64,000 nt of DNA from Perkinsus olseni (taxonomy: Eukaryota). The notes below the pieces were generated by a model that saw only the letters and a program-made list of their open reading frames with translations, did not search any database and had not been told where the DNA came from. Made by a program: the position numbers and the translations under genes. Location of the stretch: NCBI GenBank assembly GCA_013115125.1, contig JABANN010000072.1, forward strand, positions 1 to 64,000. Direction: 5' to 3'. Every line of letters starts with the position of its first letter. The stretch's first letter is position 1. Shown piece by piece: positions 3,316 to 63,300 of the stretch.

Positions 3316-4299
3316 TAGGCCCACGATTGTGCGTACATCGACGCAACGCCACCAACGCTCACAGTGAAATCGCGGAAGTTAACAATGACAATATTTAAAT
3401 GGGGGCTCGCAGTGGAACTGGTTGTCCAGGGAACTGCATCGGATGTCGTAGCTACAATTCCAAGATGTCCATGAATAACTTATCATCGACCTTGCCAGTG
3501 TGGGCACTCAACGCGAGGCGGCGCCTTGGTGATAGATATAGGCTGGAAGTAGATGGTAATACTTGAATTGTCATGCGTAGTTTTGATGGCATTCACTTGA
3601 AGCACAAGAGAGAGGGGACGTAGAAGGGTTCGAAGAATTAATACAGTTTGGCAGAGTACGTGCCAATGTTATAAAGTTTCATCAGTGTCATTCTCCCTGG
3701 GTTCTATGAGACGGCACTATTGATCAAACCGTGTGCAGCAGTGACAGCATCAGGCGCTCTGCCTGTCACTGGGGAGGGCAACGCAGGCGAGGGTACACTA
3801 ACTTTCTGTGACTCGAAACTCATCCTAGGAAGGATTCCGGCACGCGAATAGCCATACCAGAATCAATTCGGGAATGTACAATTGTTTCATCGTAGACACT
3901 CTCACAGGTTCGGAACCAGTACAAAATTCGCCGATTTCCCCGATCATGAGCCACTATACCATTCAATCGCATGAAATTGCGTGCCTTACTCGCGGAATTG
4001 AAATCCTCATTTGAGGCCTGCCGCTAAAATGACTTCGACATCCGCCAATTGCATCCCCTCGTTTCGACCCTATCCGCCAATTTGCTGCTGTCTCAACTCG
4101 CTAATGTGATGATGTCCTCGACCCCTACGGCAACCCTATTCGCCCAAATTCTCAATGATTTTTGAACATCAACTTTGATCGATTGTTGTGGCGTGCGCGA
4201 GCTACGGCGCATGATCTCCACAAGCGGGCTCGGGACCTTCATCGCATGGTTTTTGCCTTAGTTGGCCCTTGAGGCCGTTGCCAATTCGTTACCCGATAA

Positions 4300-7200: not shown

Positions 7201-10200
7201 AAAATAGTGGAGAGGGATGTTGCCAACGACAAGCCTTATTACGATTCAACAGCGGGGTGTCGAACAGCCGTGCAGGCGGCGACTTTCATGGCCCCGACAA
7301 ATTGCGATAGCGCGATAAGCTGCTCGGATACACGAGACGATTCTCCTGTGTCGGCTACGAACCCGTTGTGGACGGATCTTCAAATCGACGGAGTGATCGA
7401 AAATAAGATATCAGTATCATCCAGCTATGATGTGTGCTACTGTGACGGCGACTGTGTGTCCAATGCTAACTGGTTCAAGATTGGCAGCTTTGATGTTAAT
7501 AGAGTTTACGTGCAGTTTTTGGATACTACATTGGCGATCAAGCAACCGCATGTTAATAAACTAGGTGAGCTGCTGTATATAGCAATTCTTGAAATTGTCG
7601 CCTTCAACGACACTTGTCTGTGTGTGCGAGAATGATACTGCCTTCGATCGCGCCCTTCACGCTGTGTACGCGCAGTCGCATACATATATCATGGAACCAC
7701 TACCGCCACCTAGCGATATCATCATCATCATCATCCAATACTATTATCGAACCACTATCGATATGCAATATACCATACCGTGAACCACTAATTCCCCTGT
7801 CGATCAGGGCATCCTGCTCGTCCGCGGGAGAACGCTTCTAAGCTAGCTTTGGGCCAAAGCCTTTAGCAGAGCCGTTCTTCAGCTCGTTCGGAACCCGAAT
7901 GGAGTCGTATTGTGAAATCAGGAGCGCCTAGCGCGGTTGCCTTCATCACAGTCGTGTTACTGACGCTTAGGTTACGTGAAGGTCCTCGGGAGCTCCTCAA
8001 CTGGTAGTTGGACCACAACAGGAGACCAAACGAGAGAGATGAAGATACTACCGGTACAGCGCTGCTGCTCTGTTTAATAGCGGACCATCGGTTGACCGAC
8101 TCGCAATCTTGTCTTCGTGTGTCAAGAGTGAGAGATCACTTTTGACATCTTTGTTTCTTGCAATCTTGCAATTCCTCAACGTTCTTCGTCGTTCAGGACA
8201 ATGACGGTTTAATCAACAAGAAGGCCTGCCTCGACAACGCCCAGTCTTCCCTCATCGTATCGGGTCACTCGTGCTCTTCCCTGCTGGACTGCGACTCTCC
8301 CGTCAGTGCTAGCAATTATCAGCTTTACGGCGGCGGAGCGATAAAATTTTCGAAAAGTGGATGGATGGCCGTATGCTACTGTGACAAAGTTTGCAATGAG
8401 CAAGGCAACTGGGCGGTGGTGGGCCGACTCCTCGTTCTCGGTCCCCTGGGCTCTGAGACGTGGGTGTTTGCTGAGGCACTGACATTCAAGTAGGAGGAGG
8501 TGGCGGGTTCGAATCCCGCAATTGTCATTTTCAGGTTGACAATACATGGTTGGGGCCTATCTAGCAATAATTATATTAGGATTATCGACTATTCTAATGA
8601 GTGCGGAGTGGCAGATTCCACTCAAAGCGCGAATGTGAAAGGACCAGTGAACAGCGGAGCGTTGTTGTCGGGTACGAGTAACATGAGAACGATAGCGCCA
8701 GCCAACCCAAGGTGAGTGATTCTCTATAGAATGCTGTTAGCAGTAGCGATAATTCGGGTAGTAGTTGTGGTTGCAGCAACAATAGCAGTGGTGGTGGTAG
8801 TGGTAGTGGGCGCTAATGGGACATGGACCAGCGGCGGCTTGGATCCCTCCAACGTTGGGCCGATGGGTCGGCATCAATTCCGACCCGTGACGTTCCTCTA
8901 TGCCGTTCAGTTCATCGGGCTCGATTATTACATTCGGCACAGCATCGGCCTCGGTTGCTCACGGGTTGAAGGATGGGGATTATATCCAGATCGAGGACGC
9001 TGTGGAGACTACTACTGGGAAAAGCGCTAACAGTAGGTCCAACACCCCCCTACCTTTCACCTTTCATCGTGATCTTGGGGCGCTCGAGTATTCTCGTTCT
9101 TCTCCTCTATGGCGGCGTTCGCCGAACTATTAACTAGTTCTAAGAACTCAACCGTTTTAATTGGATTGTTCTTTTACTGCAGGGAAGCTTGAAGAAGAGG
9201 AGATGATCAACACGTCCCATGAGGTCGCCTACATCGACGAGTACTCCATCAGAATTCCACTCAGTTTTCCGGATGGGTCATACCCGACCTACGATATGGT
9301 GAGCTCGTCGTTGGTCGGATAAATAGCTGATTATAATGTTTTGTCGTTATGCTGAGGACGTAGTATGAATCCTTGAGTGCCGACTGAATTGGTCTGTGGA
9401 AACCTTCGGGAATTATTGTCGGCTAGCGATGAATTTCGATTTTACGGAAGATTTTCTGTGAATTTTTTAAATGAAACTGAACCTAGCAGAGAATGGCGGG
9501 TTCCTCACCTTCACACTGACGAGGTCATCCCGCAGGGCATTCGATCGTGGTGCTCATCATTTCTATTCAACAGCCATTGGGTCAGGAAAATCGGTTTGCG
9601 GCTGCGTGATTGTTTGGCTGTACTATTCCCTGTAAAACTAATTGGAAATTTATCAAAGAATCTTCGCGGCGAAGGAAAGAGCCAATACGGAAAGCTTTTG
9701 GGTTGGAACTTCCCATAGCGAATGCCATTTGTAGCGGAGGCTTTCAGGTCGGGGGCACTGGGACACCAGCAGTGACGTGGAGTAGGAACTCTGAGCAGGA
9801 GTACACTAATATAATGTCCCTGTTGAAGGGGGAGTATAAAGTCTGCTGGAGCGAAAGCGCTAATTCGTTGGACACTGACTTTGTGGCTCAAGCGGGGACT
9901 CTGGTCATCACGGAGCCGCCTGCTATGACGGCGAGTTTGAGTCTGGCTACGATCGAGGCCGATGTCCCTCAGCCGATAATCATATCTTTTACGACAGGGA
10001 CGAGCGCTAGATATTCGGAAGCGGTGAACCCGATTCAACTGAAGATAGTTTTTACGGATCCTTCTTACTTGGAGCCGCGGACAGTCAGCGATGGTTCCAT
10101 CGGAATCGATAGCAATTTCGACGAGCTTAGCGAAGCGAAGCAACATATTTGTGGGAAATATTTCAACGAGCTGTGGTCATCGGATCCCAGCGGGTTCCCG

Positions 10201-13200
10201 ATGCCTCAAGGGTGTTACTTGAGAGAGGACAACATCGATCCTGCGGTAACTAAGACTGAGTTCTACATGGTATTCCATAAGAGGAATGGCTTGAAGGCAT
10301 CCACGAGGTGAGCGCTCTCTGTGCATTCGTCCGACTCGGGAGTAGCAGGGGTGTTCAATACACTGCTGCCTCCCTTGATACTAGTAGCGTTACCAGGGTT
10401 GAATTCAACGTGTAAAAGACTCGGGAGAGGCAGTCTCTTGAACAATCAGAGCACCCCGCACATCATCGTCGCTATATTGCTAGGATTGAGTATCTTCTAC
10501 TTGTCCGAGATGTTTTGTATTCCCCTGCTCATGCCTTATATTCGTAAGTATCGGAGGAGTGCTCGTTCGTTGCAGGCTGCCTGACTCTATAATCTGGAGT
10601 ATTTATCTCTAACGCCAGTACAATCTCGCTCGCCCTTATTTCACTCAACCCAGCTCGATGCCACTGCTGCTCGTTGTAGGTATGAGATCGTTATGCATGC
10701 TACTGCACGAGAGATCTTGACGCAGACTTTGCCGTCGAACGCAGCCGTCCAGGTGTGGATCATGGACGACGTCATTGAGCGGCCGCTAGATGTTATTGAA
10801 CTTGGCAAGGCCGCTGCCAACAGGGACATGGCGACCGGCCCAACTAGTCGGGCTTCTGGGGATCCGACCTTCCACTCGACAGACGGCTTTGTCATCACTG
10901 GTGGAACAGACGGGTTGTTGGAGCTCACGTCGTACTGTATCAATGATGATTTGACGGAGGATACGCCCGACTTTGAGAGGAACTGCCAACCGTGCCGGAG
11001 CGAGGAGGACTGTGGAAATACTGATGGTGAGTCCTGCCCGCTTTCAACCGAATCATGAACGCTTGCATCACGTAGAATGAACTGTGCTCCAATTTAATGT
11101 GGAATATAATATAGAGTTAATTTCGCCTCAAACACTAAGGGTTTGGACTTGATGTATTAACACGCTATTCGTTGCGATGATTCACCTCCCGAACAACTGT
11201 AGCCGTTCAACGCCTACATGCTGATATATCTCAGGGGGATCTTGCAGTCTTGCCTCCTCTTGGAGTTTCTCAATTTTTCAGCTTCTCGTAAGTGGTGTGT
11301 TACACCGGTCCCAGCAGCGTGCGCATCGAACGACCTTACCAGCGTCCCAGCTTTTAACGTCAAACTCCGAGCGCAATCGAACGGTCCCATCGGCCCGGGA
11401 AATATTATAAGACGTAAGGCGACCTCTCTTGGTATCTTGCTAATCTTGCATTTCCTCAACGTCTCTCAGTATACCTACATCCGCTGCTAAGTTGGAATAT
11501 CCAGTCGAACCCGCTCGCCTCCTGTACACCATTCGAAGGCGGCGTGTGCGGTTCGGGTGGTGTCATAAGCGCTGCTGCAGAATCGGTAGTTGGCGGCTCC
11601 GTCGTCGGGGCAGGAGGAGAAGATCATGTTAATGTAAGGGCAATAGAAGGGTTTATTCTCGCCTTTCGATCCGCTGTCTACGCTGGATGCGCCATCAACC
11701 ACGCGCCACGAAATTCGGATATCTGCCTTCTCCGATCATTCCAAAGATTGAGCTTTTTCGTTCGGTCGAAAGGAAAAACTAAGACATATGATGGTAGGTA
11801 AGGATCGTGGTGAGCCATAGAACGGTCTCGAGTTCGATCCTCGAGAGTAGAACTCACCCCCATTTTCTCATTAATTCTCCCTTGCAAAGGGGCCTGATTT
11901 TTTGTTGAATCCTTGCTCAAAAGTAAAACGCCAAGGGAGAGTATTCGGCCTTAGGCCGCTGGACTTCTTTTCTCGACCGAGGTTAGATAGCGCGAAGAAA
12001 ATAGTGATTCTTCTTCTCCGCTGTGCAGGTGGTCAAGCTGACAATACCGGCGATATTCGACCCAGTCACTGACGTTATCCAGCACACTATTCACATAGGA
12101 AACCTGAGGTTGCCCGAGAACGGATTCTTCCCTGAGACGATAACAGCAGAGTTGTTGCGGCAGGAGGGAGCTGGGCCACAGTAAGGAGGGTAGCAACCTC
12201 TCCAGGGATCATGTGCATTACTATTACTAGGGGAGTATCACCAATTGAGCAGCATTAGTCGCGGTAGAAATGACAGCGAGACCGGGTGAAAGTCAAAATC
12301 TTCATGGGAGGGAACTTGGCGTGACCACCTGTTTCATGTGCTCCTCTTCGTCGCTACGTTGTTGATGTATCCTGTGTTTGTCATCTACCGACGCGGCAAT
12401 GTGGCCTGAAAAATCCCCGGCGAAATGATTCTACTCTTTTGCTATGGGCCTGCGCTCCCCTGTCGCCTTGTTCACGGTACCTCAACGTCTCCCTCATATT
12501 TTTAGCTACTGGAGTTCGGTGGCCACCGGGTCGTCGAAAGTGTGGATCCAACCAACGGTAGCGTCAGTGAGCATCGTTGGCCGGGCTGGGGACGGCAATG
12601 AGAAGCCTTTCAAAGGGGACATGAAGAACGAGCTGTATTTCCGTATCGTCACTGGCTTCAACGTTTATGCTGCAACCAGGGGAGATGCGGAGCTCACTTT
12701 CTTCCTACCGCCTGGGTGAGGAAAACGAGAATCGATTATTTGGGCGCGCGCTATTGACGTTGCAGATACAAATGTGCCCAAACTGGCAGTTCATGCGCGG
12801 CGTCGTGTATACCCGATAATTATGTTCCCGACACTTTGTCCATCTTCAAGGACTCCGGTACGGGCGAGTATCTGATGCCATCATATCGCGGGCAACTGGG
12901 ACAGGAGGTGGCGGACATGGTCAACGAAGCTGAATGGAGCACAACAGAGTCTGCTGGTGGGGATGATAGTTTCGTGGCGAGTGACGCTTTTCGGGCTGTG
13001 TGTCGTCTACGATAAAGGCGATCTTCATATGGCCTTCCGTAGGATCTTTGTCGTCGTCCTAGGTATACTGGGCCAGAGTGGATATGCAGCCGCCTCTTGT
13101 CGTCTAACATTTCAACAAGGTATGGTACTCTACGGCAACACGGTGGTGTACATGGGTATTACTGTGGACAATCCATCAACAGCCTTGCAGCAGGTGAGGG

Positions 13201-39299: not shown

Positions 39300-41630
39300 A
39301 CTTCTGCGCTTCGTCGTGCGTTCGTCCAGATTATGTCTCCACGACCATGTTCGAAAGTGCGCAGTCTGTGTATTCTCTCCAAGGATAGTTATACCGCTCA
39401 TGGTGCTTCAATCGAGTATTCACTGCTACCGCGGACCGCTGGGCCTGCTCTGCTGACCTTATGGACCTGCATGTAGTCCTCCCATTGTTCCTCACTACTC
39501 AGGCGCAGTACGAAGTCGTGCGCTACGAGGCGTTCAAACGCTTTCTTCGGCATGCTCACAATGTTGGGGTCCTGCGACTGCGTTACCCTCGGCACCTGCA
39601 CGACAATATATCGAAACACTTTCCTTTAGTAGAGGAGAAAATGTGTTTTCTAACGTTCTCGGGGCAAGATGGACTCACCGTAAGGTATACAAGAGAAGAT
39701 GAACACTGGGTGACCATGCCTGCCCTCAGGCTTCTCGCGATACATGCATGGTTACCTGAAGGCTCGGATAAGAAGAAAAATAGAAAGATCTTTCACTAGC
39801 CCCAGTATTCTGTTACGAATAACCCTTCGTTCAGGCTTTTCAACAACTTAGCAACAAACATTGATGAATGTACACTGGGAGCGCTAGCTATTGTCGTTGT
39901 TGTACTGAGTAGTCCCTCAATAGACTAATTGACTAGGTCATCCAACAGCTAAGGATAAGCACTGAGTGGTCGGCAAAACGAAACTCTTCAATGTTGACAC
40001 GATTCGACGTGCCGCTACAAATCAGAATTCCTTCAGTGGTTGCAGCCTTGCCGAGTCATTTGCTAGTAATCGATGTTAACGCGAAGACAGACAACTACTC
40101 AGCGACGAGAGAGGAGACCTACTGATCACAGCAGTGTGGAGATCTTTCTTCAGGTCCTGGGCTTCTCGAGTCACTTCAGAGTCATAGTCGATGCCCTCAA
40201 ACTCGAACTCGTCACGCGCCTGTCGTGAACGATGTCGAGCCAGATCAGCATGCACTGCTCACTTTCTCAAAGGCCTCCTTTATACCCTGGGGGAGCTTCG
40301 ACAACAGCACGCCTGAACAGGAAAGGGGTAAAATATTCCGCTTAAAACGTTGAGAGAAATTGCCTACTGAAATACGACGCACAGTATCGCTCCGAGCTCG
40401 GGGGCAGGGTCGTATCGCTAATACCAAGCACATGGAGAAGGCAGACGACCTGAGCTCGGGAGGTGTCCGGGAAAGGATCCCGCCATCGCCTACCTTCAAC
40501 AGCACGTCACAAGTGCCCACCGCTGCGAGCTCCTCCATCACACTAGGAGCTGCGAGCAAGTCTCGAGGTAGAGCCGCATCCTGACCGCTGAAAAAGGAGA
40601 AAAATAATCGACCGCGGGACGATGATACTCTACAAAAAATTGAGAAGGAATTCTAATTGAGATTTATTATTTCGAAGGTAGTAGGGTGTAAAATCCTCAA
40701 ACCAGCAACCAGGCGAATCGTCGAAACCTCAAACTTGAATAATTTAACATCGATTCATTCTGCTGTTTGCACTTATGATCTCTGGGCCTGGGGGGCCTAA
40801 TCTTATTTTCATCGGGGGAAATGCCCACTACGAGGCTCGGAAAAAATTCCTCAGTGAAGTATCCGATGAGCATTCACGCACTTCAGTGGGTTACGCCGGC
40901 AACGGCCAGGAGAAGTAACAGTTGCAGCACTCACCACATCTCATGCGTCACTTGTCGAATGGGGGCGGCAGATTCATGGAGCAAGGCTCGAATGATGTAA
41001 CTGAGAAGAGACTGTAGCACACTGCAGAATCATGCTGGTGCGGAGGGAACCAGGGATGCTACAGGAATTGCAAAACGAACTAAGCCTCGAAAAGAACGAT
41101 AGCTCAGTGGGGAAATGCAGAGCTATGAAGAGTAAAAGCGATTAAACTAGGCCAAGCAATTCCCCTAGGCTTCGGCATAGGAGACGGGATGACCATCATC
41201 ACGTCACTACTCACGACGTCGTCACAGTGTTATACGTCGCTACGTCGTACTAGTGACGTACATCATCAGCAAGAAGTGGAAACGGTCGGGCAAAACCCTA
41301 CACGACATACACGTATGCGCAAGACAGCACTCACAATTTCATCTTCTCTTCTGTATCACCATCTATCAAGAGGCTCATGACAAGGGCAAACCAACGATAT
41401 GATGGGGACAGAGCCTGTGAAGGGAACTCCAACTGGTCGTACACTGGTGAGAGTATCTTACAGCATAAGGTCGGCAGGTCGACCCCGTCCACATCTGGGC
41501 GCATATCAAGCGAAGATATTCTCGCTTAGGACCATCAGTCAGTGCTCTGGCTGAGTGCACTAGGCCATCTAGCAGCCACGCCCAGGTACGACTGAAACCA
41601 GCAAATACTACTACCATTATGAATATCACA
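39300..41630 (-). mobile_element. Possible degraded Mutator(MULE)-like transposase remnant
   Basis: Fragments across frames appear in MULE order: VGDGG, QVVCLLHVL (CxxH), N*SIEGL. Many stops and frameshifts; motif resemblance only. Confidence 0.3.
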
Positions 41631-42622
41631 GTCTATAACGTGCGAGGGATCAACAACGATATCCACAGCTGTTCATTAGTAAGTCCAGAGTACGAGAGAC
41701 GCCGTTCGAGAGTCCGAACCAATTTCTACACAGCGAGGTGATCCACCTACTTCGGAGTCAGAGGGCTGGACTCAGCAGTAACAACTTCCCGAGTGTATGC
41801 CTCAATAGCTCCGGCCAACACAAAGCAGACTCCCCGGACGGTGTCCACATACCGAGGCGATATGTGCTCGCCAAAATGGAACTGAAAAAGAACTTCCCAT
41901 CGCGGTTTCGCCAAAATTCCGAACAACAGTGATGGGAAACTGCCCGAACCTAATGGGAGCCGTCTGCCCCTCCTTTCATATCGCACATGCCAAAAATGTA
42001 ACGACATGTTCCCGACGCGGCCCAACCCCTGATCTTACTTTCTCCCACTGACTGGCATCCATGCCGCCCTGCAAGGCCGGTAGAACCTCGACCAAACTCT
42101 GCATACACTCCAGTCCGAATCGGGCAGCCGACGTCGGACACCCTTCGAAGGTGGTAGCTGAATGAGAGGGCCGCTGAGGAAAACCCTTCCCCAGCCGACA
42201 CGGGGACAGTCTCGTGTGGAACAGAAACTGGCCGTTCACTACGATGAGCTACGAAGAATGTGTGCGCGTAGGGGGAGCGCACATGTATTCATGTACCGCA
42301 ACTTCGTAACTTACGAAGTAGGGGTTAGCAACTTTCGTAACTTACGAATCGTAGGTGTGTATGTATGGCGATATGCGTGGTGACTACACGCTTTCAAGTT
42401 CCACGACATGTTAAACGTCGGCCGGATGGAAAACAGTCCACTGACGAGCCCTAGGCAGAGGATTACGTTGCAAGACCATCATACCACCACACCCCATCGA
42501 GCTGCGGAAATCCCTTCTTTCAGAGTGCATACTCACCGAGTGGAGGTTCCTTGAGGCCTCTGTCCTCCGCTGGCGGCAGCAATGCGTTGCAAGGACGATT
42601 GCAGTACCTGGAGAGCGTACCA

Positions 42623-45600
42623 TTACGCAGGTCTATTTGGTGCATCTACTATGCGCCAAGGAGGACAGCAACCCCCCAAAGCTAGCACCATGTCCGAGGA
42701 GTCTCTTACGGGCAAGTTAGATTCCCGACGGAAGCTTCGCGATAACTCTCCCAACACTTCGTATGTAGCAGATGACCGCAACCGTGAATCTGAGGAGGCG
42801 AGACACTCAATACCCCACATATAAAGAGTAGCGTATATTAGTGCGATGATCCGACTGGCAACGAGTAAGGCTCGCCCAGCGAACAACACTGCACCGGCAC
42901 ATCATCGCTGTACCACGCAACGCAATGAAACTGTACGTACGTATAGACACGATCCGCAGCTGGAGGAGAGGGTACAAGGTCACATCAGAAGGCTTCGACG
43001 CTCTTTGGGGCATTCATAAATTTTATCACTGCCGGCCACTGACTGCATGCGCCTTCAGGAATACGTGGCACTGTAGCAGTGCGCTGGAATTATCAGCGCG
43101 ACGGTGTCGCCGGAAAAAGCGTCGGACAAATTATACGGTGTTTCTCGCCCGTCTTCTTGGTAAAGTTCTGTCATCTTTCTTCGCTTGCTCGCCTCCACGT
43201 CCCTCCCTTCAACCTTCTGAGTCTCCTTCAAATTCTGGCAAAATAACTCTGCTCCCTCTCCTCCTGCGGGGAGGAGAAGTTAACGAAAGTGCACGTCACT
43301 GAAGTGACCTTCGACTTGCCGTCTCTTGAAGGTCGACAGCGACTAGTAAGTATTGCGGCAGAGGGGCTACGATCCTGCCTCTCGTATATGGAGTGAATAT
43401 CCCACCACTCGAGAATGTCTTTAATGTCAACACTCGCCATAACAGTAGCTTGTACGCGGGCGATCTGCGAGTCTTTATGCTGAGCTGCCGCGATATGTGT
43501 CCACACGCCCATCAGCCAGTAGCCAGCGATGCCGAACCCAAAGCGGCTGAGAACGGCCTGAACGTGTCTGTAGATTTCATGTGGCCTATGAATCTCCAGT
43601 CCATTATTCTCAAGAGGAAACAGCAGAAGCTTTTCCAGTATTTCTTCGCGGTTGGTTTGATGCCCAGGTGGCTGCTCGGGAAGGAACCGACGAGGTTACG
43701 GTATGTTACTTTCCCGTTGAAATAACCGTGCCATCGAGAGACTTCGGAGTCAAGTAGATGGAACTTGTCCAGTGAAGGAGGGGTGTCCGGCACGACCGTC
43801 GTCCCGTACCTCCCGCATTCTTGGCCCGTATGACTCGTACGGCAGTATGCCCAGCCAAACCGGCGGGTACCGTTAGTTCACGCGGTCAGCAGTCCGAGAC
43901 ATACATACCATGCCCCGGAGACAAGTGACTAGCCAACCAACGAAGTTGAACTAAGAAATTCAGCTGCCTTACCACAGCCTTCACACTTGTTGGGCCGGGC
44001 GAGAAGAACGTCATGCTGGGCTGCTGTTGTTGATGGCTTTGCTGCTCTGCCCCTCCACTACTGCGCCGTCTGGGAGAGGCCATGGTGGTCTCCTCAAAGG
44101 GCAGTATGGCCTCGTGAGCTGGTATCTTAGGGCGAGGTATATCGGTGTAACTGAACAGTGAAGCCTCTCGAGCAATATCCTCAGCCTGAACAGAAAACCC
44201 AAGGGACCATACAAGTCATCATGTAAGAGTTAATACCGCCACATCAATTCATCGACGGCCTTCCAGAAGTCGCTACTCACCCAGGATAGCACGGCGAAAT
44301 TGCAAGGTTATCCATAGAGGGTGATTGAGAAGTGCAAGAATTGAACCAAGGGTGCCATTAAGTTGGAGCAATTGCTGGTAGCCACATGATGCAGCTTGAG
44401 GCGTACATATAGGACGTACAAGATAGAGTTCCACACCTGCTTACGTCGAGACCTCCACGAAGCAAAGGCGTCCTAAGGACCCTGACACAGCAGTTGGCGA
44501 CTCAGGGAGGATACCAATATGACCGAGGGGCTCTGGGTTCCCGCCGAAGCATATAACGCAGGTCTGAGAAGAAAAAATAGAATCCGTAAAATTTCGCCTG
44601 ATGTCTCACGAGGTCAAATCATAAAAACGGCTCCGAGAAGTTAGCACGGGACCTTCCAGACTATGAGAGGATATCACTCAGACCATGCAATGCCGCAACG
44701 GCTTTCGCGAACGATAGTCCGATACTCACATCAGCATCACAGCCAGAGGTGCTCGTGGCCCGCTGCCGCTGCATTGCCGTCGACACTGAGGGGCTCCTCC
44801 TGGAGATGCTATCGAGGAACTCTTGCTGACGCGACCGAACCTACGGAGCAATTCGCCCAATCATTTCTCTGCTTTAGAGAGACAGCACGCACAACAATCG
44901 ACCGAAAAGCACCGTGGAGAACAAACATCAATAGCTTGTATCCGCGCATTCGCGGACTCCCGGTTCAAGAGGACATACCGATACTTCGACCTTGTGCTCA
45001 GTGACGAACGATTACCAGGGACATCATCCTCCGCTGGACCAATCGGCGGCGTCTAATCTTGCCAGGATCAATCGGACTTGACCCCGAGAAGGATGAATCC
45101 CCACGATGACGCTTGTTACCTAGAAGGACACAACAAGGACCACCCGCCCGTCGACCCAAGAGATGGTGATGCCGGCGCATTTCACTGGGACCACGACCAT
45201 GTCAAGCAAGGAGACGAATGGACCTCCCTCATACTAACATGGTAATTCCATTGGAAATATCCCAGCGAGCCGAGGCTCGTGAGAATGACTGAAAATTTTC
45301 CCATCATTCTCACGAAACTCGGCTGAGAGTTTTCAAGCTCAATCAAAAAGGTAGGAACTAGCGTGTGAAAGCGTCACGGAGCGCCACACAGCGCTAGCTA
45401 CCACACCTCGGAGAACCGAAGGTCATCCGGCAAATGCAATAATCAACATCGGATACGGCATACGTTCGGCATCGGAGCTTCCGTCCCTCTCTTCATCAGC
45501 GGCAATAGTCGTACTCTTCTTCCTAGCTGGTGTGCTCGGGTTCACAGCAACTTCGGGTACCGGTATATTCGCCGATTTCATGCACTGCTCGATCTGCAGC

Positions 45601-48600
45601 AGACAATTTCGTGGCGCGCGACAATGACCACACTGACCTTATCCTTGATGCCCTCGTCTTTTCCTCTCACCGCCCTTCTATGCAACGCGTTCAACAGCAG
45701 TTCTATCCACGGATATTCCTGTGCGCAGCTCGGTTTCACCGCCAGGGACCCGAGCATGCTCAAGATACTCTCAGACGTATCTATAACACGATGAACGAGT
45801 CGTTCAGAACGACCTCCATATCGAGAGCACGCTCCAGACTCGGTATAACAAGATCCAACCGCTCAGGTTCAATTCGGCCAGCGAGGCGGAAAAATTATGC
45901 TAATTCGCCCACAAATTCCCTGGACTAAGTGAAGAGATAGTATAAGTGAAATCAGACCCACCGATTTCACGCAAATTTTCTGTTTTTCCCGTGTTCGCGC
46001 CGGGCGAATACGGAGCCCGATGTTTACCTGTGCCCTGAGCTCCTCCTGGAAGGCCTAGCGGTACAGCGATGGGGTGGAGACAGCTTCGAAGGATCGCTAT
46101 GTTATCTGATCGACCATGCGAAGTTCAACTCCCCTCCGTTCACAGGGATCATATTCTCGTATCCAAAGCAGGACCATTGGTATTTTCTAAAGTTTCCGAG
46201 GTTGCTCGGGTGATCATTCAATAACCCAGGAGGCCGAAAAATTACAAACCATGACGCACATTGGCTCACATCCGTACCATAACAAACGGAACTCCCACCT
46301 GTAGCAGATTCAGCTCGGACAGCATGGAAGCGACTCGCCAACTGGGGCACAGTAAACGCCTGAAACTTGTATGACGAGGTCGAGGACTGAGGAAGAACAA
46401 GAACGCCATCAAAACGGGCATCAGTGCCTCCCCCTTGAGAAAATAGACTTGCCTCAGCTTCATCCTCCACACATTCAACTTGCTCGTCTTGCGACTCTTG
46501 AACTTCCTCAACGCCAAGAGACACAGTGATAAGTCTCAGTAGCAGATGCAGTATCAGATGCAGAAGTCGCTGGTCACCACCCAATGTATCGAAGAGTCCA
46601 ACCCTGAAAACATACCAAATAATTTCGCGGCGCGCGAAATTTCCCGGAGTGCTCTGTGCCCACTTCACAGCAAGAAGACCAATGAAGCATATCGCCAGGA
46701 ACTCGGGAGCTCGAACAAGCCGAAGCGATTGATCCCGCAGATCTTTGTGGACCTGAGAAGAGGCGAAGCGATGCAAGCGTATAAGTCGAACCTCACCGCA
46801 GTACTCTGACAATTCGAATATAGAAACACGAGAAAGCACGAGAAGTGAGTCACAGAGGAGTGAGCTTGGCCGAGCTTCTCCCAAATGCCCTCAACAATCT
46901 CCATCTGGCTGCCTCCTCACCTTTGCCCGTTCATGGTTATAAATAACATCCTCGAACCACCACTCAGTGAGCGTTCGACGCTCTCGCTTCAAGTGAGCAA
47001 TCTGAGAATGAATGACAGCACTAGTGGGCAACCTGGGAACGGAGAAAGCAGTATCCGAACTCGACCATAGGCACGATGACGACCTTCCAAACATGATTTA
47101 CAGCCTCATGTCGACGACTAGACAGCTTTCCTGATGATGTATTCTGCCCAATACACCGAACTCGCACCAAACACAGACCCCACCCACGCGACTGCAATCG
47201 AGCGACTCAATCCACGGAGAAGAATGGCGGAAAATGCCCAAAATGCTACGGGGAAAAGATCCAAGAATTCTGGAAATACTTATTCTAATCATCGGCTCGG
47301 CAATGCTCTCGAGAAGACCGAAAACTCGTCACACTCTGATTCATACCGCTGTTGGTGCATTAAAATGTCACCACCACAACTCTCCCCCTCTCACCAGTCT
47401 TTCCTCTACATCCTGCTGTTCCCTCCACACCCAAGTGGGGTGCAGCAAGTCCACGAGGCCCCACTGGTCTTCCCTTAGAGTATATGAACCTGCCAGCAAA
47501 ATTTCTCAGTGACGGTGTCGTTATCATCTTCGCGCTCCCTCCACTCACTGCGTTGCCCAGCAGTATTTCTAGTATCTTCCATTTCTGTCTTCGCCACGGA
47601 TGCAAGATTCTCTTGCAAAAGCTCAGCATCCGCTACCGCCAAGGTATTGGTAAACTTGTCAAGGCGAGGATCTCTTGCGTACGACATCCTAAGTACCATA
47701 ACATTCTGAGACCCTCCTCGGCAATTATCTCGACATCATCAACTCACACGACGTCTCGCGATGTCTTCCGAGAGACGACGAAGGACCGACTCGCTAGGCA
47801 GTAGGCATCGATCGACAGTCGCGAAGGAAAGGAAAATCATCAGTTCAATTCAACCACAATAATTCCAAATGTTCCAAATTCCAAATGCCCCTTTGGTGCC
47901 CAAGCCTACGTCAGTTGCCCAGCAGCAGCCAACCGCTGCCTCAGATGCTGCCTCGAAGTCACTTCCGTGTACTGCTTTCCATCACTATCCGTAGTACCCG
48001 ATGCATACGGCGATACCAAAGCACAGAGAATCTGAGAATCACAACAGCGCTCGCCAAGACGATCGATTTAACTGAACAGCACACACGAGAAGGTCTCCCT
48101 CTCGAAGCGTACCTTGACCACACAGCACAGCTTCTTGACGTATCTTTCGCCCTCTTCAACCGAGGATGAGCTCATCGGTGGGATATATTCACACCAGGCC
48201 ACGGTCGGTCGGATTCCAAATGCCGACAACAAGTGTCTGATTCACAATGAAAAAGTTTTTGCCCCAAAATCGATAAACCGTTTTGAAATCTTTTGGATAC
48301 TGCACTGAGCCATACTCTACAAGAGCGAGTACTTTTCGCTAGCCCGAAAGCGGCAGCAGTATACTCTTGGCGGATAGGCTAACTGAATCGAAAGAGTCAA
48401 GCAGCATCGAAAACAAGAAAGCATTGGTCAGCTCGACGCCCCGCTGGCTCCGCAACCCCACATAGTGTTCTGTTCAACGATCCCGAATCGGAATGGCAGA
48501 CTTGAAGCTCACTTTATGAATCTTCCAGAGTCATGGCAAAGTTTGCTGGTGAGAAGGACGGCGAGGAGGTCAAGATCAGCAAAGGCGTGGTGGAAGTAGT

Positions 48601-51600
48601 TGGCTACATAGAACTCGTGCTCAGAGCGTACGGCATCACCTAAGGGCAGAACCACTCCGGCTAAGATAGGAGATCGCAAAACATTAGTTAGGAAATCGCA
48701 AGAGTTCAAGATTTGCCAGGGCCCCTGGGATGCTTCCCCCACAGTCAGCCGACAAAACCGAGCGGAGACCCCTCTGAAGCGCTCTACCAACGAACCTGCT
48801 CCAATACTAGTAATCACGAGAGGAAACACTCATTAGGAAATCGCAAGAGTTCAAGATTCATAAAGTCAGCCCTGCCACCCTGCTCACCATTTCTTATCCA
48901 CAGCCCGCTGCAAACTTCCTCGTGCTGGACCAACGCCCTCAGAGGGAACTCCAGCAACCGCACTATCTCAAAATCATCATCGTCACGAAGTTGAGCAGGG
49001 ACACAGCTCAGGCCAAACCTGTATCAAGGGAGAATCTTCCGCGTGCGCAACAGAGCGCATCTTACTTGTGTATTGTGAGCGTATAAAGTGCAACATACAG
49101 CCTCGACAAAGATACGTGCATCGAGCACAAGTCCTTCCCACTATCCCATCGCCTCGAGGCAGCCACCATCTTGGGGAGCAGATCCCGACCCTCGGACCAG
49201 GTGAATGGTGACGGCAAAGTACCTGGTCGGAAAGTGGTACTCAGAGAAGCTAGGCGGCGACAATGGTCGAAGCGACGAAAGGGATAGGTGAATATCAAAA
49301 ATCTTTTCAAATCGGGAGAATAACCTCCACGAGCACTTCAAACCATATATAGCTACAACACGATATGACAGTAGTATACCAATTCAGGGCATCGCCGCCC
49401 CTCCGATCGAAGACTGCAAAATTGTGGACATTCTGCCGCCCTGTGTAGATCTGTCAACGATACCCTTACTTTCAGCGGACGAGAGAGCCCCAATGGCTCC
49501 AACCCCAGGAGCCAGTCTAGTCTCCCAGTCAATAAGCGCCTCTCGAACTTGCAGTAAGAGGTCACCACACAACTGTGCAGAACCGTAACTGACATCCGCA
49601 GTAATCGCCGTAGAGACTGCTCATTCAACAACGTGTGTCTACGACGGGTGGACTACATTCCTGTTCAATTTACGGTATGAGAAACCACTGACCCGAGATT
49701 CGTCAGCTTGGGTATCGGCCCGAACTATAAATAGTATTACTCATTCAAAGGCGATGAATTCACTGAGCACCCATTCAACCGGAATTATTCCTGGCACCAA
49801 GTTCCGATTCAGCCATCAAGAATTCAACTATAAGCTATGCCACGGACATCTAAACCTGCACGCATGCGCAAACCTACTGGTATATTATATCGACGATCAA
49901 CCAGGAGTGACTGACCGCGTCGTTGTGAAGGGACAAAGCGCCGGTCCACTCAGGATCGGAGAACCTGACAACAACAGAAGGATTTTCACATGTAACTAAT
50001 GGAGTATTGCGACGCGACGTTGAACAGTTCCTGATAAAAATCACTGAGCAAAGATGGTTGATGAAAACGTCATAAAATCCCCGCATAAAATGCACGATGA
50101 AAATTACTCTTTCATTTTTGTGTATATTTTGCGACTGTCCATAGATACAGCCCGGTCAAAAAACTGTCCAGAGCCGAATTCATACTATGAATATACCAGG
50201 GTTCAGAGCTCATTAGGTCAGAAGTCTGTAGAGCTTTCGATTGGTGTAAGTCTCGTAGAACAGCTCTCGCTTCTCATCGAGAAAAATGATTTTTAGATTT
50301 TTTTGCCGACCCAGAGTTAATTAACACAGTGATCTGGTGCTATCTCCCGTGGGAGATCAGCTCTGGACAGTTTTTGTCGACCGGACTGTAGTAAAGGGTA
50401 CCGGTGAAGCTTACTCGACATGAGCTCCTCTCTGCACTCTATGAGCGTAGCAGTACTGCGCCAACTTCAACATCTCACACCAGCCAGGCATGACAATCCT
50501 GTAAATGAACCATTCGAGGCGGGGAAGAGTGACGCAGGCTCACTACTCTTTCATAATTTTGCCATCATCTCGCATGATAACTTCATGGACCTAGCACGAA
50601 GACGTCAGTCAAGACTCGAACAGTGCCACCGCGCATGGCAAACCCAAACAAAGTGGCTTCCGGTCATTCTACAACGATCTGTTCAGGAGCGGCTACTCGA
50701 AACAATCAACAAGGATAGGGTTTTCCCTTCGCGCTCAGTCCAGCCTAGAATGTTTCTAGTAGAAACATCGGCTAGGCCGCTTCAGCCGAGTCTGCGAGTT
50801 CACTAGTCTAGTGCCACTAGACTAGTCGTGTCGCGATTTTTCCAGCGCTCAGCAGAGCCGCGGAGCCTGTCCGTCTTCTCAACTTTTCCCAGACGTAGGC
50901 GGCAGTGTAGGACTTCTCGAAATTATCGCACGCATACGGGCGATATCTCGCATGGAGGTATCCAAACGCCTAGTTTGCGGATGAGAACACAAACCCGTGC
51001 CTGTGATGCACTCTTACGGCATGACGAAGAAAAGCTCCTAGCACACCTTGAAAAAAGGGTTCTTGACATTGGTAGCACCACTGTAACTTAGTTTCATAAC
51101 TAGTAATATCGGTGCGGCCGCACTGATGAGGCCTCCCTGATGCTCGAAACGGCGGAACATAATGATGCCGGGGCAGCGTCGCTCAATTGTGTGTCCGGTC
51201 GCGGCCCTTCGGTTTACAGGGGCCGTGCGTGATCTTCGAGATTAGATTAGATCTTCTTGATGGCGTACCCCGGCGAAAGTCACATCATCATAGCTTAAAC
51301 TGATCACCTCGTCCGCCCGAAAGAGGCCGAAGATAGCGACAATGCCTGCTACCTCATTACCAGCAAGAGAGCGCCACAGAGCGGCAAGTCCTGCAACTCG
51401 CCGGTACTAGCTCCCAGTACCCTGAAAAGCATATATGCTGCGAAGATATCTCCGGTGAAGGGCTCGTCCTCTTCTTGGCTGAATGAGAATGAAGATGAGC
51501 CTTTCTTATAGGTCCGCCAGCTTGCTCAGTGGCGCTGGGTCAGTGCTTCATATCACCAGTTGATATAACTTATATGGCATATCATATAAGCAATAACTTG

Positions 51601-60300: not shown

Positions 60301-63300
60301 CATTCCTACTACCGACGATTCACAGGATGACCGAAGAAGGCCCACCACCATCGTCAGTGGAGACAGTGCAAAATGGTGGACGATGGAAGGCCTACCCTGT
60401 GGCACTGGTCATGCTGTGCTGGGCTGTTGTAGACGGTTGAGCATCTCGGTGCTGCAGGTATTGGCCCCTACTAGGGAACTAGCCTCACAGATATTCGCCG
60501 AAGCGAGAAAGTTCTGCTTTGGCACAGGTGGGCGGGATATGGGGGAGACTGCGCGAAGGGAACGAGAGAGAATGGTGTGGGTGAGAAGAGATCGGAAGCT
60601 GTTTGACTATAGTCAGAGATCGTGCTGGGAATCTCGTGAAGTGTATGATGGAAGGAAGCCACTGTGCTTGTAGACGACAACAGCAGTCTCTCAACCGGGC
60701 ATTTGGGATGGAGGTATGTGGACTGCATACCTCCATAAATTTAATAGCGTACCGTAGCGTAATGTAATAATAAATCCATGAATAAATAGCGTAGTAAATC
60801 TACTACATGCTTGTATTATTACCCCTACCATCACCGACAGCGGTCAGTTAGGTCTTTGCAGGTATCAGGGCGGTGGTGGTGTACGGCGGTGCTGAGATAA
60901 GGTTACAGTTGCGGGAGTTGGAGAGAGGCTGTGATCTACTCGTTGGAACACCTGGGAGACTGACTGACTTGATTGAAAGGTATTTTGTGGCGAGATGGTG
61001 GTGTGTAGAGTTGGTACTCTGAAGGTATCGGGTTCAATCCCCGCCTCCTGTGCTTTTAGGTATCGTGTATCATTGAGTCAAGTAAATTGCCTGATTTTTG
61101 ACGAGGCTGATAGAATGCTGGACATGGGCTTCGAGCCTCAGATAAGGCGTATTGTGGAGCAAGAGGACATGCCAACCTCGCGGCAGGGAAGACAAAGTGG
61201 GTTGGGGTGGAAGTTATGGTAGTCTAATCACGTGGCACCGGAGGGGCATTCATCTTCGGTGTCTGTAACCGGAGGACTTGAAGTCTTCTTAGCGGTCTAA
61301 GGCTATAGAAGTGCTATATAGTTTACTCCTGGGACTGGTATGACGTACTTCCCGGAGCTTTGCTCTCTCGATCTACGGTGAACTATCAACCCCAGTGTGA
61401 TGACGGCGGAGGGTCGCCCGTTTGTTCAGCTTGTCTGTAGCGTAGCGAGATTACTCTTGGCGGCCTTTTATGGGGTGATGGATAGATATCTTGTTTGGCT
61501 CTGTAATGGCGCGGTGCGTTTTCCGAATGTCGGCGTAGTATTGGCAATGGTAAAGTGTTGCTCCTTCTCCTCCTCCTTCTCCTCCTCCTCTACCAGGTAC
61601 GATGTTCTCTGCTACCTTCCCTCGAGAGATACAGCAGCTTGCTCGGGATTTTCTTAACGACTATGTTTTTCTTACAGGTTGGGCTGGGATGCCTCCGCGT
61701 TTGGTTACGGTTATCTGGAAACGGAAGTGGGAAAATATAGACCGTCTTTAGTGAAGCCAGATGTCGTCATCTAAAGGGAGCGTTGGGATGGCTGAGGTCA
61801 GGGAAGGCAATCGATCGCTTGAAATTGAAATGAAAACATAGGAAGTGGCAATTGATGAAATAGATCGGGAAATGGTGTAGTTTGGAGCCTCTCCTCCTCT
61901 TCAGTTGGTCGAGTTGGGTCGACACACAGTTCGATACGGCAAGTGCTGAGGTGAGCAGGGTAGACCACAGCGTGGAGACCGTTCGACCGTACTATCGGGC
62001 TACAGAGGCTCCTCATGGTGACAATACTATCGCACTGTGAAATTAATGATCAACCTCCCCTTTTCGCGATGGCCTTTTCGCGTTATATCATCGCTGAGGG
62101 CCGTTCATTGGCGTTTGTACTTCGCAAGATGATCCTTTGGCTTTGCATCACATCGCGTAATGTGATACGTGGAAAACACAATGTAGTTCAACCGTTGAGC
62201 TACATTGTGTTTTCCTATCGGTCGGCCTGTTGGCCCAATTCTCCTCTGAGAGGGGCGCTTAGGGAATTGTGTCACAGAACCGGTGGATCGCCTTATGTCA
62301 TCATTGTAGTGACCCTAGGTACGTAGAGGACACGGACAAGTACAAGGATTTGCGGCGGCTACTGGAGGACCAGTCGGAGGAGGGCCTCACGCTGGTGGGT
62401 GTGCTGGTCGGGATGGCTGTAGCATAGGAACGCTTCGAGGCATTCCTGATGTAATTGATGAATTGTGTCGTAAGGGAAGGGAGTGTGAGAAGTGGCCATT
62501 GGGTTGGATGGAATACAGTAGTTTGGTGAGATACAGGTAACGCTGGAGTGTAGCCATTGGCAAGGTTTCACAGCATCGTCGACGTTCTCGGGAGGTCGTG
62601 GTCGAACCAGGAGGGGATGGTATTATTGTCATTATGCTCTGTCTCCTTGCGGTAGATATTTGTAGAGACCAAACGCCGGGCGGATGAGTTGGAACATATA
62701 TTGTGCCGGGATCGGTGAGAGGACCCCGAGGTGGGTGGTGTTATCAGGTAGTATGGCTTAGGTACCCAGCAACGTCCATTCATGGGGATCGGACTCAAGC
62801 GGAGAGGGAGGAGGCCTTGCGGGACTTCAGAATGGTGGGACCTGGGCCTGTGGGAACGGAAGTGGGCCTCAAGCTGAGGCCTCCATCGACGATGGAGAGG
62901 GATACCGCCTGATGCTGCTGCTGCTGCTGCTGCTGCTATCACTCCTGCATCTTCATCTGCCATGATGCAACGGATACGGAAGATTCTCTCAGCTCTGAGG
63001 CGTATCCTTTAGGGTGCGAGACCGATATTAGTAGCAACAGATGTAGCAGCCAGGGGCCTTGACATCAGCCATGTGAATCATGTCATCAACTACGACCTTC
63101 CACATAATATCGACGACTACGTCCATCGTATTGGGAGTAAGGATGTAGTCCCTCGGCTAGCCGCCGCCAGTGCTTGGGTTTAGGGACCGGTAGAGTTGGC
63201 AACCTCGGCACGGCTACCTCCTTTGTTAACGAGAGCGGCAGGCCGATACTGCGCGATCTCTGGGTAAGCGCGCCTTTGGAGAGGGAAGGGTCGCACCGCA

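Follow-up and report, generated by a model that had tools for sequence, protein, structure and literature searches.

tRNA-like elements in the introns of three genes

We analysed the first 64,000 nucleotides (64 kb; hereafter the window) of contig JABANN010000072.1 from Perkinsus olseni, an alveolate parasite of clams, in which the GC content stays at about 0.46-0.56 all along. Three unrelated genes in this window, encoding a large protein of repeats, a ligase with a UBR box and a helicase like DDX3/Ded1, host in their introns 14 elements related to transfer RNA (tRNA): one intact tRNA-Arg(TCG) gene and 13 fragments (Table 1). An earlier note on this DNA had described T arms in at least ten introns and an intact tRNA at 14710, recurring in three unrelated genes. 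All ten places carry an element, with small corrections of coordinates and base pairing (the one put at about 11793 lies at 11828-11852), the intact tRNA was confirmed as Arg(TCG), and the recurrence stands, all 14 elements being in introns of the three genes. To these we add the element at 55418-55442 and two copies found with a covariance model, at 53103-53127 and 6000-6024.

Gene models were guided by homology to annotated Perkinsus proteins, taken from P. chesapeaki, P. marinus and further isolates of P. olseni. An ab initio model based on codon usage was dropped because it skipped small exons. The homology-guided models retain errors (exons of 2-4 nt), and the donors at 13248, 59438 and 60998 were corrected by hand from the annotated proteins.

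The motif of the internal promoter B box, GGTTCRANNCC, occurs 9 times in the window, against a mean of 0.99 in 100 dinucleotide shuffles, the largest of which gave 4 (none reached 9). The shorter form GTTCRANNC was found 39 times (17.7 expected from shuffles, largest 29), T loops with at least 4/5 stem pairs 11 times (2.54 expected from 50 shuffles, largest 6), and a B box followed by 12 nt and TTT, with 1 mismatch allowed, 7 times (0.64 expected, largest 3; 0/100 shuffles reached 7). Within the window, the counts of T-arm motifs therefore lie above every shuffle.

The only complete tRNA found in the window by ARAGORN and Rfam was the tRNA-Arg(TCG) gene at 14709-14783. It scores 65.4 bits against the canonical nuclear tRNA model RF00005 (gathering score 29; model positions 1-71), and all its stem pairs are formed (acceptor 7/7, D 4/4, anticodon stem 5/5, T stem 5/5). 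The RF00005 search at E<=10 gave no other match, ARAGORN with relaxed thresholds became unspecific (11 calls at 85%, 50 lines at 80%), and an Rfam search of 54400-55500 returned nothing beyond weak matches of the mascRNA and tmRNA type, which covered the T arm and a GU-rich closing helix. A covariance model (R1) was built from 12 sites, which align over 39 columns with zero gaps and a mean column identity of 65%. In the window, R1 recovered all 12 training sites at 24-36.5 bits and added the two copies mentioned above, matching 53097-53135(-) and 5992-6030(+); the next match scored 12.8 bits, and the top score in 32 kb of unrelated metagenome control DNA was 11.2 bits. We also noted a weak tRNA-end-like candidate for a fifteenth element at 38359-38397(+) (12.8 bits, E 0.19), with a T stem of 5/5 and the loop TTCAATA, which lies antisense to the UBR gene between two homologue-supported exons.

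The elements share a common register, in which a T stem of 5 bp leads into the loop TTCRANN and back through the returning stem; then come seven bases in the place of the acceptor 3′ strand, a discriminator position and, usually, TTT. About half of the pieces also show a variable-loop-like GGTC or GGTG before the T stem. The TTT stands directly after the discriminator in 10 of the 14 elements and after a single C in one more, while another has TT only; CCA was found after the discriminator in none of the 14. The pieces thus have the make-up of a tRNA gene 3′ end (T stem-loop, 7 nt, discriminator, oligo-T, no CCA). As TTT is present and CCA never is, the pieces are, on their sequence, derived from nuclear tRNA genes or their primary transcripts and are not copies of mature tRNAs, which upholds the derivation proposed earlier.

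The number of T-stem pairs ranges from 5/5 to 2/5 (Table 1), a gradient that looks like a series of ages; both copies found by the model have broken B boxes. The fragments at 8503, 13260 and 54521 have a mutual identity of 82-89% over 28-33 nt. Even among near-identical T arms, the acceptor strands differ at 3-5 of the 7 positions, which fits several donor tRNA species. Taken with the mean column identity given above, the pieces are too divergent among themselves to have been copied recently from a single element, in agreement with the earlier remark that the fragments differ.

We also scanned the sequence upstream of the T arms for the acceptor 5′ strand, D arm and anticodon arm, with strict and loose geometry and with shuffled upstream controls. 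A cloverleaf was found only at the intact tRNA (p=0.000) and, marginally, at 55150-55174 (p=0.01 and p=0.02), and neither the strict nor the loose scan found one in the other 12 fragments (p>=0.09). The complete RF00005 cloverleaf is therefore absent from 12 of the 13 fragments and marginal in 55150-55174. A cloverleaf built by eye for intron 58302-58385 was no better than shuffles (p=0.35) and was withdrawn. The A-box motif, for which our search was less sensitive than for the B box, was not enriched (6 in the window versus 3.4 expected; 14/100 shuffles reached 6), and its matches had tRNA-like surroundings only at the intact tRNA-Arg. Three fragments without a 5′ half have perfect 5/5 T stems, namely those at 11828 (395-nt intron), 54521 (144-nt intron) and 8503. 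Since such fragments lie in roomy introns or far from splice sites, the loss of the 5′ part is not just a matter of decay or of lack of space. The fragments are thus 3′-anchored, 5′-truncated pieces of tRNA genes that comprise the last ~30-40 nt, from the variable loop to the oligo-T; the set probably consists of a tRNA-Arg(TCG) gene that looks able to work, a probable pseudogene of full length and twelve 5′-truncated copies.

Table 1. Host genes, tRNA-like elements and copies of a second intronic motif in the window. The distance is that from the discriminator to the 3′ splice site; P numbers denote annotated Perkinsus proteins, and bars mark exon junctions.
Feature	Positions	Strand	T stem	Orientation and host	Distance (nt)	Junction and remarks
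Large repeat-domain protein gene	~4300 to at least 22300	+				homologue-guided model
UBR-box E3 ligase gene	about 37.5-57 kb	-				homologue-guided model
Divergent DDX3/Ded1-like DEAD-box helicase gene	58.2-63.9 kb	+				homologue-guided model
Degenerate tRNA 3′ fragment (T arm to discriminator)	6000-6024	+	3/5 (manual count)	sense, 206-nt intron 5835-6040, repeat-protein gene	16	ungapped in P0007; trailer TTTCTCCATTTGTTAG; R1 16.5 bits, E 0.013
tRNA 3′ fragment	8503-8527	+	5/5	sense, fills 45-nt intron 8490-8534, repeat-protein gene	7	ungapped in P0007
tRNA 3′ fragment, without oligo-T	11828-11852	+	5/5	sense, 395-nt intron 11634-12028, repeat-protein gene	176	ungapped in P0007, P0008
tRNA 3′ fragment, TTT trailer	13260-13284	-	4/5	antisense, 143-nt intron 13194-13336, repeat-protein gene		...ALQQ|SDATNVW... 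ungapped in P0007 and P0008
Intact tRNA-Arg(TCG) gene	14709-14783	+	5/5	sense, 102-nt intron 14696-14797, repeat-protein gene	15	ungapped in P0007, P0008
tRNA 3′ fragment	18544-18568	+	4/5	sense, 123-nt intron 18462-18584, repeat-protein gene	16	ungapped in P0008
tRNA 3′ fragment	21923-21947	+	3/5	sense, 50-nt intron 21907-21956, repeat-protein gene	9	GT-AG and open joined frame
Degenerate tRNA 3′ fragment	53103-53127	-	3/5 (manual count)	sense, probable 66-nt intron 53088-53153, UBR gene	15 (putative splice site)	R1 19.5 bits, E 0.0014
tRNA 3′ fragment	54521-54545	-	5/5	sense, 144-nt intron 54472-54615, UBR gene	49	...SAIG|VVCG... ungapped in P0129
T arm of probable full-length tRNA pseudogene	55150-55174	-		sense, 3′ end of 211-nt intron 55132-55342, UBR gene	18	...DSVW|YVADG... 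(DSVW|YVADGRETIAYGCKTCGL, UBR box start) ungapped in P0129
tRNA 3′ fragment, without oligo-T	55418-55442	+	3/5	antisense, 54-nt intron 55397-55450, UBR gene		...ATKW|CESLP... ungapped in P0129
tRNA 3′ fragment	58352-58376	+	2/5	sense, 84-nt intron 58302-58385, DDX3-like gene	9	two-block alignment to P. chesapeaki P0011, 1-residue gap away from junction
tRNA 3′ fragment, TTT trailer	59433-59457	-	2/5	antisense, 47-nt intron 59421-59467, DDX3-like gene		...PPPK|EDGTW... ungapped in P0009, P0011, P0017
tRNA 3′ fragment	61028-61052	+	4/5	sense, 80-nt intron 60980-61059, DDX3-like gene	7	ungapped in P0009, P0011, P0017; between helicase motifs, downstream exon YRVSL...DEAD
ATTTCGTGGCGCGCG copies	6777-6791, 6937-6951, 11700-11714, 14536-14550, 15727-15741, 20910-20924, 21507-21521, 45606-45620, 46622-46636, 59931-59945
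ATTTCGTGGCGCGCG, further copies	18677-18691, 17407-17421, 6848-6862

Splicing of the host introns and position of the elements

Each of the 14 host intervals has GT at its start and AG at its end. In addition, we required that the peptide read across each junction align to annotated Perkinsus proteins, and 12 of 13 introns were supported in this way (for example, ...ALTFK|LTIHGW...), 11 of them ungapped and 58302-58385 with a one-residue gap off the junction. The intron at 21907-21956 lies beyond the homologues, and its removal joins the frames into ...IEQEVGFTFAVEVVNP..., which matches the repeat motif of the protein. The homologous proteins are themselves predictions and hence not independent proof of splicing.

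Read contigs from DNA runs X1 and X8 and from runs X7 and X10 were compared over 3000-22999 only, with the UBR and DDX3 introns outside. One contig of X10, a run whose kind is not on record, joins 8460-8489 directly to 8535-8685, and the 45 nt between them are kept in the DNA contigs of X1. In run X7, which we guess to be RNA, one contig ends at 13334, three ambiguous bases short of the acceptor at 13336, and another joins 16328 to 16397, indicating that this run includes spliced sequence. The reading of the host segments as introns is therefore backed by a spliced contig in one case and by homologous peptides in 12 of 13, leaving 53088-53153 unsupported.

The modelled spans are 57% intronic, and all 13 elements within them fall in introns (P about 6e-4 under uniform placement), although this mainly confirms the description, since exons would hardly tolerate such inserts. 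Out of 77 modelled introns, 13 (about 17%) carry the tail of a tRNA gene, and one more lies beyond the models. The minimal class of introns in these genes measures about 43-58 nt, and the host introns range from 45 to 395 nt (Table 1).

Eleven elements are in sense orientation to the host gene and 3 are antisense. In 9 of the 11 sense copies, no more than 18 nt separate the discriminator from the 3′ splice site, an outcome with P=1.6e-4 under random placement in the same introns, and the same holds for 6 of the 8 sense copies when only introns of at least 80 nt are considered (P=2.9e-4). In these nine copies, the T-rich trailer is all that stands between the tRNA end and the YAG of the splice site, so that the trailer is the polypyrimidine tract, the only one ahead of the YAG; tRNA end and splice site read, for instance, A-TTTTCAG at 8503, C-TTTTTTCAG at 58352, G-CTTTTAG at 61028 and A-TTTCTACAG at 21923. 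The oligo-T running into the acceptor, already pointed out in the earlier note for several sense copies, was thus borne out, and so were introns made of little else than the fragment: the 45-nt (8490-8534) and 50-nt (21907-21956) introns are almost wholly fragment. The intact tRNA-Arg likewise occupies its intron save for a leading 13 nt and a trailing 15 nt (TTTCTCCGTTTTCAG). For the antisense copies we found no positional rule, as one is internal and two lie in 47- and 54-nt introns, where the ends are unavoidably near. A position of antisense copies 9 nt from the 5′ splice site had also been considered, and it fell for 13260-13284 once the donor was set at 13194.

Origin and possible function of the fragments

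The account that we favour, with a probability of roughly 0.5, is that the pieces were inserted mostly into existing introns and that their oligo-T was co-opted as the polypyrimidine tract. Pieces of tRNA gene 3′ ends would have been inserted either as copies resembling complementary DNA, primed on the U-run of precursor tRNAs, or as filler DNA at breaks, with a strongly amplified pool of tRNA genes, of the kind reported for P. marinus, as the donor. Most pieces would have landed in existing introns, preferring T-rich 3′ ends, where the oligo-T would be taken over as polypyrimidine tract and the remainder of the piece would decay neutrally. The gene-level trailer, together with truncation on the 5′ side, would fit pieces that were copied from a primary transcript's 3′ end or picked up as gene fragments in break repair. 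P. marinus is reported to carry near-identical tRNA genes by the hundred, with 349 for tRNA-Leu and 116 for tRNA-Gly besides other amplified ones (PMC3706591), and in our material the depth of DNA contigs over tRNA-Arg is about 12 times baseline; together, these make a large and mobile donor pool plausible. Furthermore, the two introns of 80 and 84 nt have the length of a minimal intron (43-47 nt) with one fragment of ~37-39 nt added, and long introns contain further repeats (e.g. 11634-12028); both observations agree with insertion, perhaps directed to T-runs, into introns that already existed.

Together with 8 nt of its trailer, the intact tRNA-Arg stands between the two copies of a direct repeat, TTTTCAG (14702-14708 and 14791-14797), the second copy being the 3′ splice site. 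This repeat (p=0.054 versus shuffles) could be either a target-site duplication or chance in T-rich sequence.

Several points weigh against insertion into existing introns, or limit how far it can be carried. Target-site duplications were not found around the fragments (13/13 with p>0.2), no fragment could be assigned to a donor tRNA, and runs of three T are perhaps too short to make RNA polymerase III (Pol III) terminate. The 45- and 50-nt introns are too small for simple insertion into an older intron of viable length and, having no room for one, call for deletions at a later stage or for an origin as new introns. Sense copies outnumber antisense ones only with weak significance (11 to 3, two-sided p=0.057; 10 to 3 for the fragments only, p=0.09). 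As to splicing, the spliced contig backs one intron only and the rest depend on predicted proteins of other isolates and species, while intron 53088-53153 is unverified, being open in frame as well and not covered by homologues. Detection was led by the B box, so the sample is skewed to well-kept T arms; two copies depend on a model trained on the other twelve, whose E-values are rough. Finally, a single 64-kb window is the whole basis, and within it the 31 kb from 22 to 53 kb, which take in much of the intron-rich UBR gene, have no element at E below 0.1, so that the density of tRNA ends may be local and not general.

The small introns lead to a different view, which we regard as possible but clearly less probable, namely that introns were gained. 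Here a sense, 5′-truncated copy of a tRNA gene within coding sequence would have been spliced out through its oligo-T, a nearby YAG and a GT at or near its 5′ edge, the minimal introns being new. The introns 8490-8534 and 21907-21956 consist of a 5′ splice site, the fragment and YAG, with no older intron sequence possible, the intact tRNA-Arg nearly fills its intron, and the excess over a neutral pattern is made up solely of the nine sense copies flush with the splice site, the other five (three antisense, two sense but internal) resembling neutral insertions. More broadly, one might tentatively see tRNA 3′ ends as a source of new introns, in that a sense piece of ~35 nt supplies a folded T arm, a discriminator A in surroundings like those of a branch point, and a U-run. 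It is about as tentative that the same two introns are wholly tRNA-derived and that the tRNA-Arg intron represents the starting state, with a GT upstream and a YAG downstream sufficing. However, neither target-site duplications nor a duplicated AGGT were found, and the junctions are ungapped in proteins of P. chesapeaki and P. marinus, so that a gain would either predate these species or be invisible at the protein level. Moreover, no case of presence versus absence was seen, and lineage X8, which has diverged by ~5-10%, has both intron 13194-13336 and intron 8490-8534 in colinear form, the latter with a single inserted nucleotide at 8527. Decay in place, by which complete intronic tRNA genes died and deletions shrank the introns, sparing the 3′ part where it overlaps the branch point, pyrimidine tract and acceptor, is somewhat more doubtful. 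It would account for a series from the intact gene (14709-14783) through the probable pseudogene (55150-55174, p=0.01-0.02) to the fragments, and it agrees with minimal introns clustering at 43-58 nt and with the 3′ splice region of the sense copies being undeletable. Yet it leaves unexplained the 3′-only pieces with perfect T stems far from splice sites (11828-11852, 54521-54545) as well as the three antisense 3′ fragments, and none of the leftover 5′ halves that it predicts, especially antisense ones near 3′ splice sites, was seen, albeit with the less sensitive A-box search.

Compared with these, it seems improbable that the fragments are kept for a function of their own, be it the binding of TFIIIC at the B box, the enhancement of splicing by a fold in the intron or the supply of small RNAs resembling tRNA, and nothing observed in the window points to selection on the B box or the hairpin. 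B boxes agree with GGTTCRANNCC, or differ from it by 1 mismatch, in 12 of the 14 elements, a circular count in that this motif was the search key, and the T-arm hairpin is part of the minimum-energy fold of the 45-nt intron. There is also a precedent in human intronic tRNA look-alikes (nimtRNAs), which, in the part of their description available to us, promote splicing and bind 3′-splice-site factors (PMC7722341) and which make a splicing-enhancer role thinkable for the fragments by analogy. Against this, T stems have only 2-3 pairs in 6 of 13 fragments, both model-found copies have broken B boxes, and the predicted folds are no stabler than shuffled sequence (z -1.6 to +0.3). The cloverleaf that the nimtRNA effect requires is absent from 12 of the 13 fragments, and so is the 5′ half required for a tRNA-like RNA. 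Least credible of all is an ordinary scatter of one tRNA-derived short interspersed nuclear element (SINE), of primer-binding sites of long terminal repeat (LTR) retrotransposons or of chance matches. The likeness of the fragments at 8503, 13260 and 54521 speaks for a common repeat, and one or two weak copies (59433, 58352) could be chance, with ~1 B-box match expected. As the earlier note had held, however, the pieces are no single SINE family: they are dissimilar (65% identity), the T arm leads into acceptor strand, discriminator and oligo-T in place of a SINE body, the A box is not enriched, and no duplications accompany them. The unlike acceptor strands and the motif counts likewise disagree with such a scatter. 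A primer-binding site was rejected because the antisense copies are preceded by complements AAA or CAT and not by TGG, the counterpart of CCA, and because the whole T arm is included.

Two scans of metagenomes for DNA of sister species yielded nothing usable: with an alignment of the repeat protein, 516 pattern matches gave 0 confirmed cases, and an intronic 20-mer hit 10 loci with no further similarity to the window. As a separate observation, lineage X8 shows deletions or replaced sequence in introns at 10372-10424, 11037-11094, 15713-15917, 17916-18083 and 19139-19267, with colinear exons.

Comparison with known systems and other features of the window

Where new intron sequence and its working splice signals originate is a long-standing question, to which the known answers are families of introners and, in a few instances, the repair of breaks. 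Introner-like elements occur in Micromonas, Aureococcus and fungi. Those of Amoebophrya (introners or invasive intronic elements, as described in the available part of PMC7789003) resemble the present case in that recurrent inserted DNA forms whole short introns in unrelated genes. Introners, however, come as near-identical families that bring the splice sites of both ends and often show terminal repeats as well as target-site duplications, whereas the Perkinsus fragments are dissimilar, lack duplications and supply the 3′ pyrimidine tract only; they do not form a near-identical whole-intron family, and the 5′ splice sites of their host introns differ (GTAGGA, GTAAGA, GTATTT, GTGAGA and others). 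In Alu exonisation, the oligo-U of an antisense Alu serves as polypyrimidine tract. There too, the homopolymer tail of a Pol III-derived repeat is reused for a 3′ splice site, but the Alu tract is the complement of a poly-A tail and makes exons within long introns, while in Perkinsus the Pol III terminator itself is used, in the sense orientation, where short constitutive introns end. In yeasts, B boxes that stand alone are known as extra-TFIIIC (ETC) sites; occupancy by TFIIIC defines them, and most are intergenic. They resemble our elements in showing the B-box consensus where no complete tRNA gene exists; in the Perkinsus pieces, acceptor strand and oligo-T point to a pseudogene origin.

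Further comparisons come from tRNA-derived sequences. Intronic tRNA genes and pseudogenes, such as those of Caenorhabditis in the available part of PMC3342880, likewise include an intact sense tRNA in the intron of a gene transcribed by RNA polymerase II (Pol II) and decayed relatives in other introns. The Perkinsus copies differ in being mostly 3′-only, in having minimal host introns (45-102 nt) and in the tRNA end lying flush with the 3′ splice site. In P. marinus, of the same genus, amplified tRNA families and Dada transposons show, as far as the available text goes, that tRNA genes multiply and disperse and could form a donor pool (PMC3706591). Dada inserts at the A box (TAGCTC), splitting the tRNA near its 5′ end (PMC3706591), whereas in the P. 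olseni fragments the start lies close to the variable loop, and Dada sequence was seen beside none of them. The human nimtRNAs (PMC7722341) are similar in linking intronic tRNA-derived sequence to the recognition of the 3′ splice site, but they are complete cloverleaves of mitochondrial origin, whereas the Perkinsus pieces are nuclear-type 3′ fragments.

For Perkinsus introns in general, the available text of PMC3101222 reports only frequency and lengths (39-1622 bp, most under 100 bp). We found no description of tRNA-gene ends at the 3′ ends of introns, in Perkinsus or elsewhere, in the literature within our scope, which left out subscription journals and supplements. Intronic tRNA genes and pseudogenes and repeat-derived intron sequence are known kinds, and the new part is the positional rule at the 3′ splice site. 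If it held genome-wide, Perkinsus would show a simple and repeatable reuse of a Pol III signal as a Pol II splicing signal. Public assemblies of P. olseni isolates, P. chesapeaki and P. marinus make gain versus filling testable on orthologous introns. For annotation, tools that mask tRNA-like sequence or expect anonymous introns may mishandle these genes.

A second motif, ATTTCGTGGCGCGCG, also recurs in the introns, often followed by GAC or GAAAT and partly palindromic (Table 1). It occurs 10 times with at most 2 mismatches, on both strands, against 0.12 expected, and forms most of several 45-50-nt introns (14521-14567, 18662-18706, 21489-21538, 59923-59967). Many DNA contigs break or join at ATTTCGTGGCGCGCG sites, which suggests a high copy number in the genome; the motif could be an introner-like family or a protein-binding site. 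A third motif, ATCTTGCAWTTCCTCAACG, was found 4 times (0.06 expected) at 8163-8181, 11443-11461, 32226-32244(-) and 46495-46513, with two exact copies just upstream of the 3′ splice sites of two introns, whose ends are at 8196 and 11469. DNA-run contigs connect ATCTTGCAWTTCCTCAACG to the GC-rich motif ATTTCGTGGCGCGCG with 9 nt between them, and given this linkage both may be parts of one high-copy intronic element.

As for the genes themselves, the repeat protein encoded at 4300-22300(+) is built of many units with ...APxGFxF... and ...YxFxLxVxNP... motifs, and Pfam gave no match for those of its open reading frames (ORFs) that were tested. For its partial homologues, which come from P. chesapeaki and a further P. 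olseni isolate, the annotation reads 'protein arginine methyltransferase 10', a name that may reflect a fused or mis-transferred annotation. In all, a Pfam search with ten long ORFs of the window gave 0 matches. Within the region of the UBR gene, 45251-45338(-) holds a near-perfect 28-nt inverted repeat (45268-45295 / 45297-45324) with a weak match to a microRNA precursor family (28.5 bits, under the threshold of 58). Outside the three host genes, a 716-aa ORF at 1228-3378(-) is 100% identical to an NCBI Perkinsus olseni protein. Two further long ORFs, at 23727-25571(-) and 26771-28792(-) (614 and 673 aa), have no Pfam match; they have repeat families in common at a constant spacing of about 2.2-2.9 kb and are therefore tandem paralogues.

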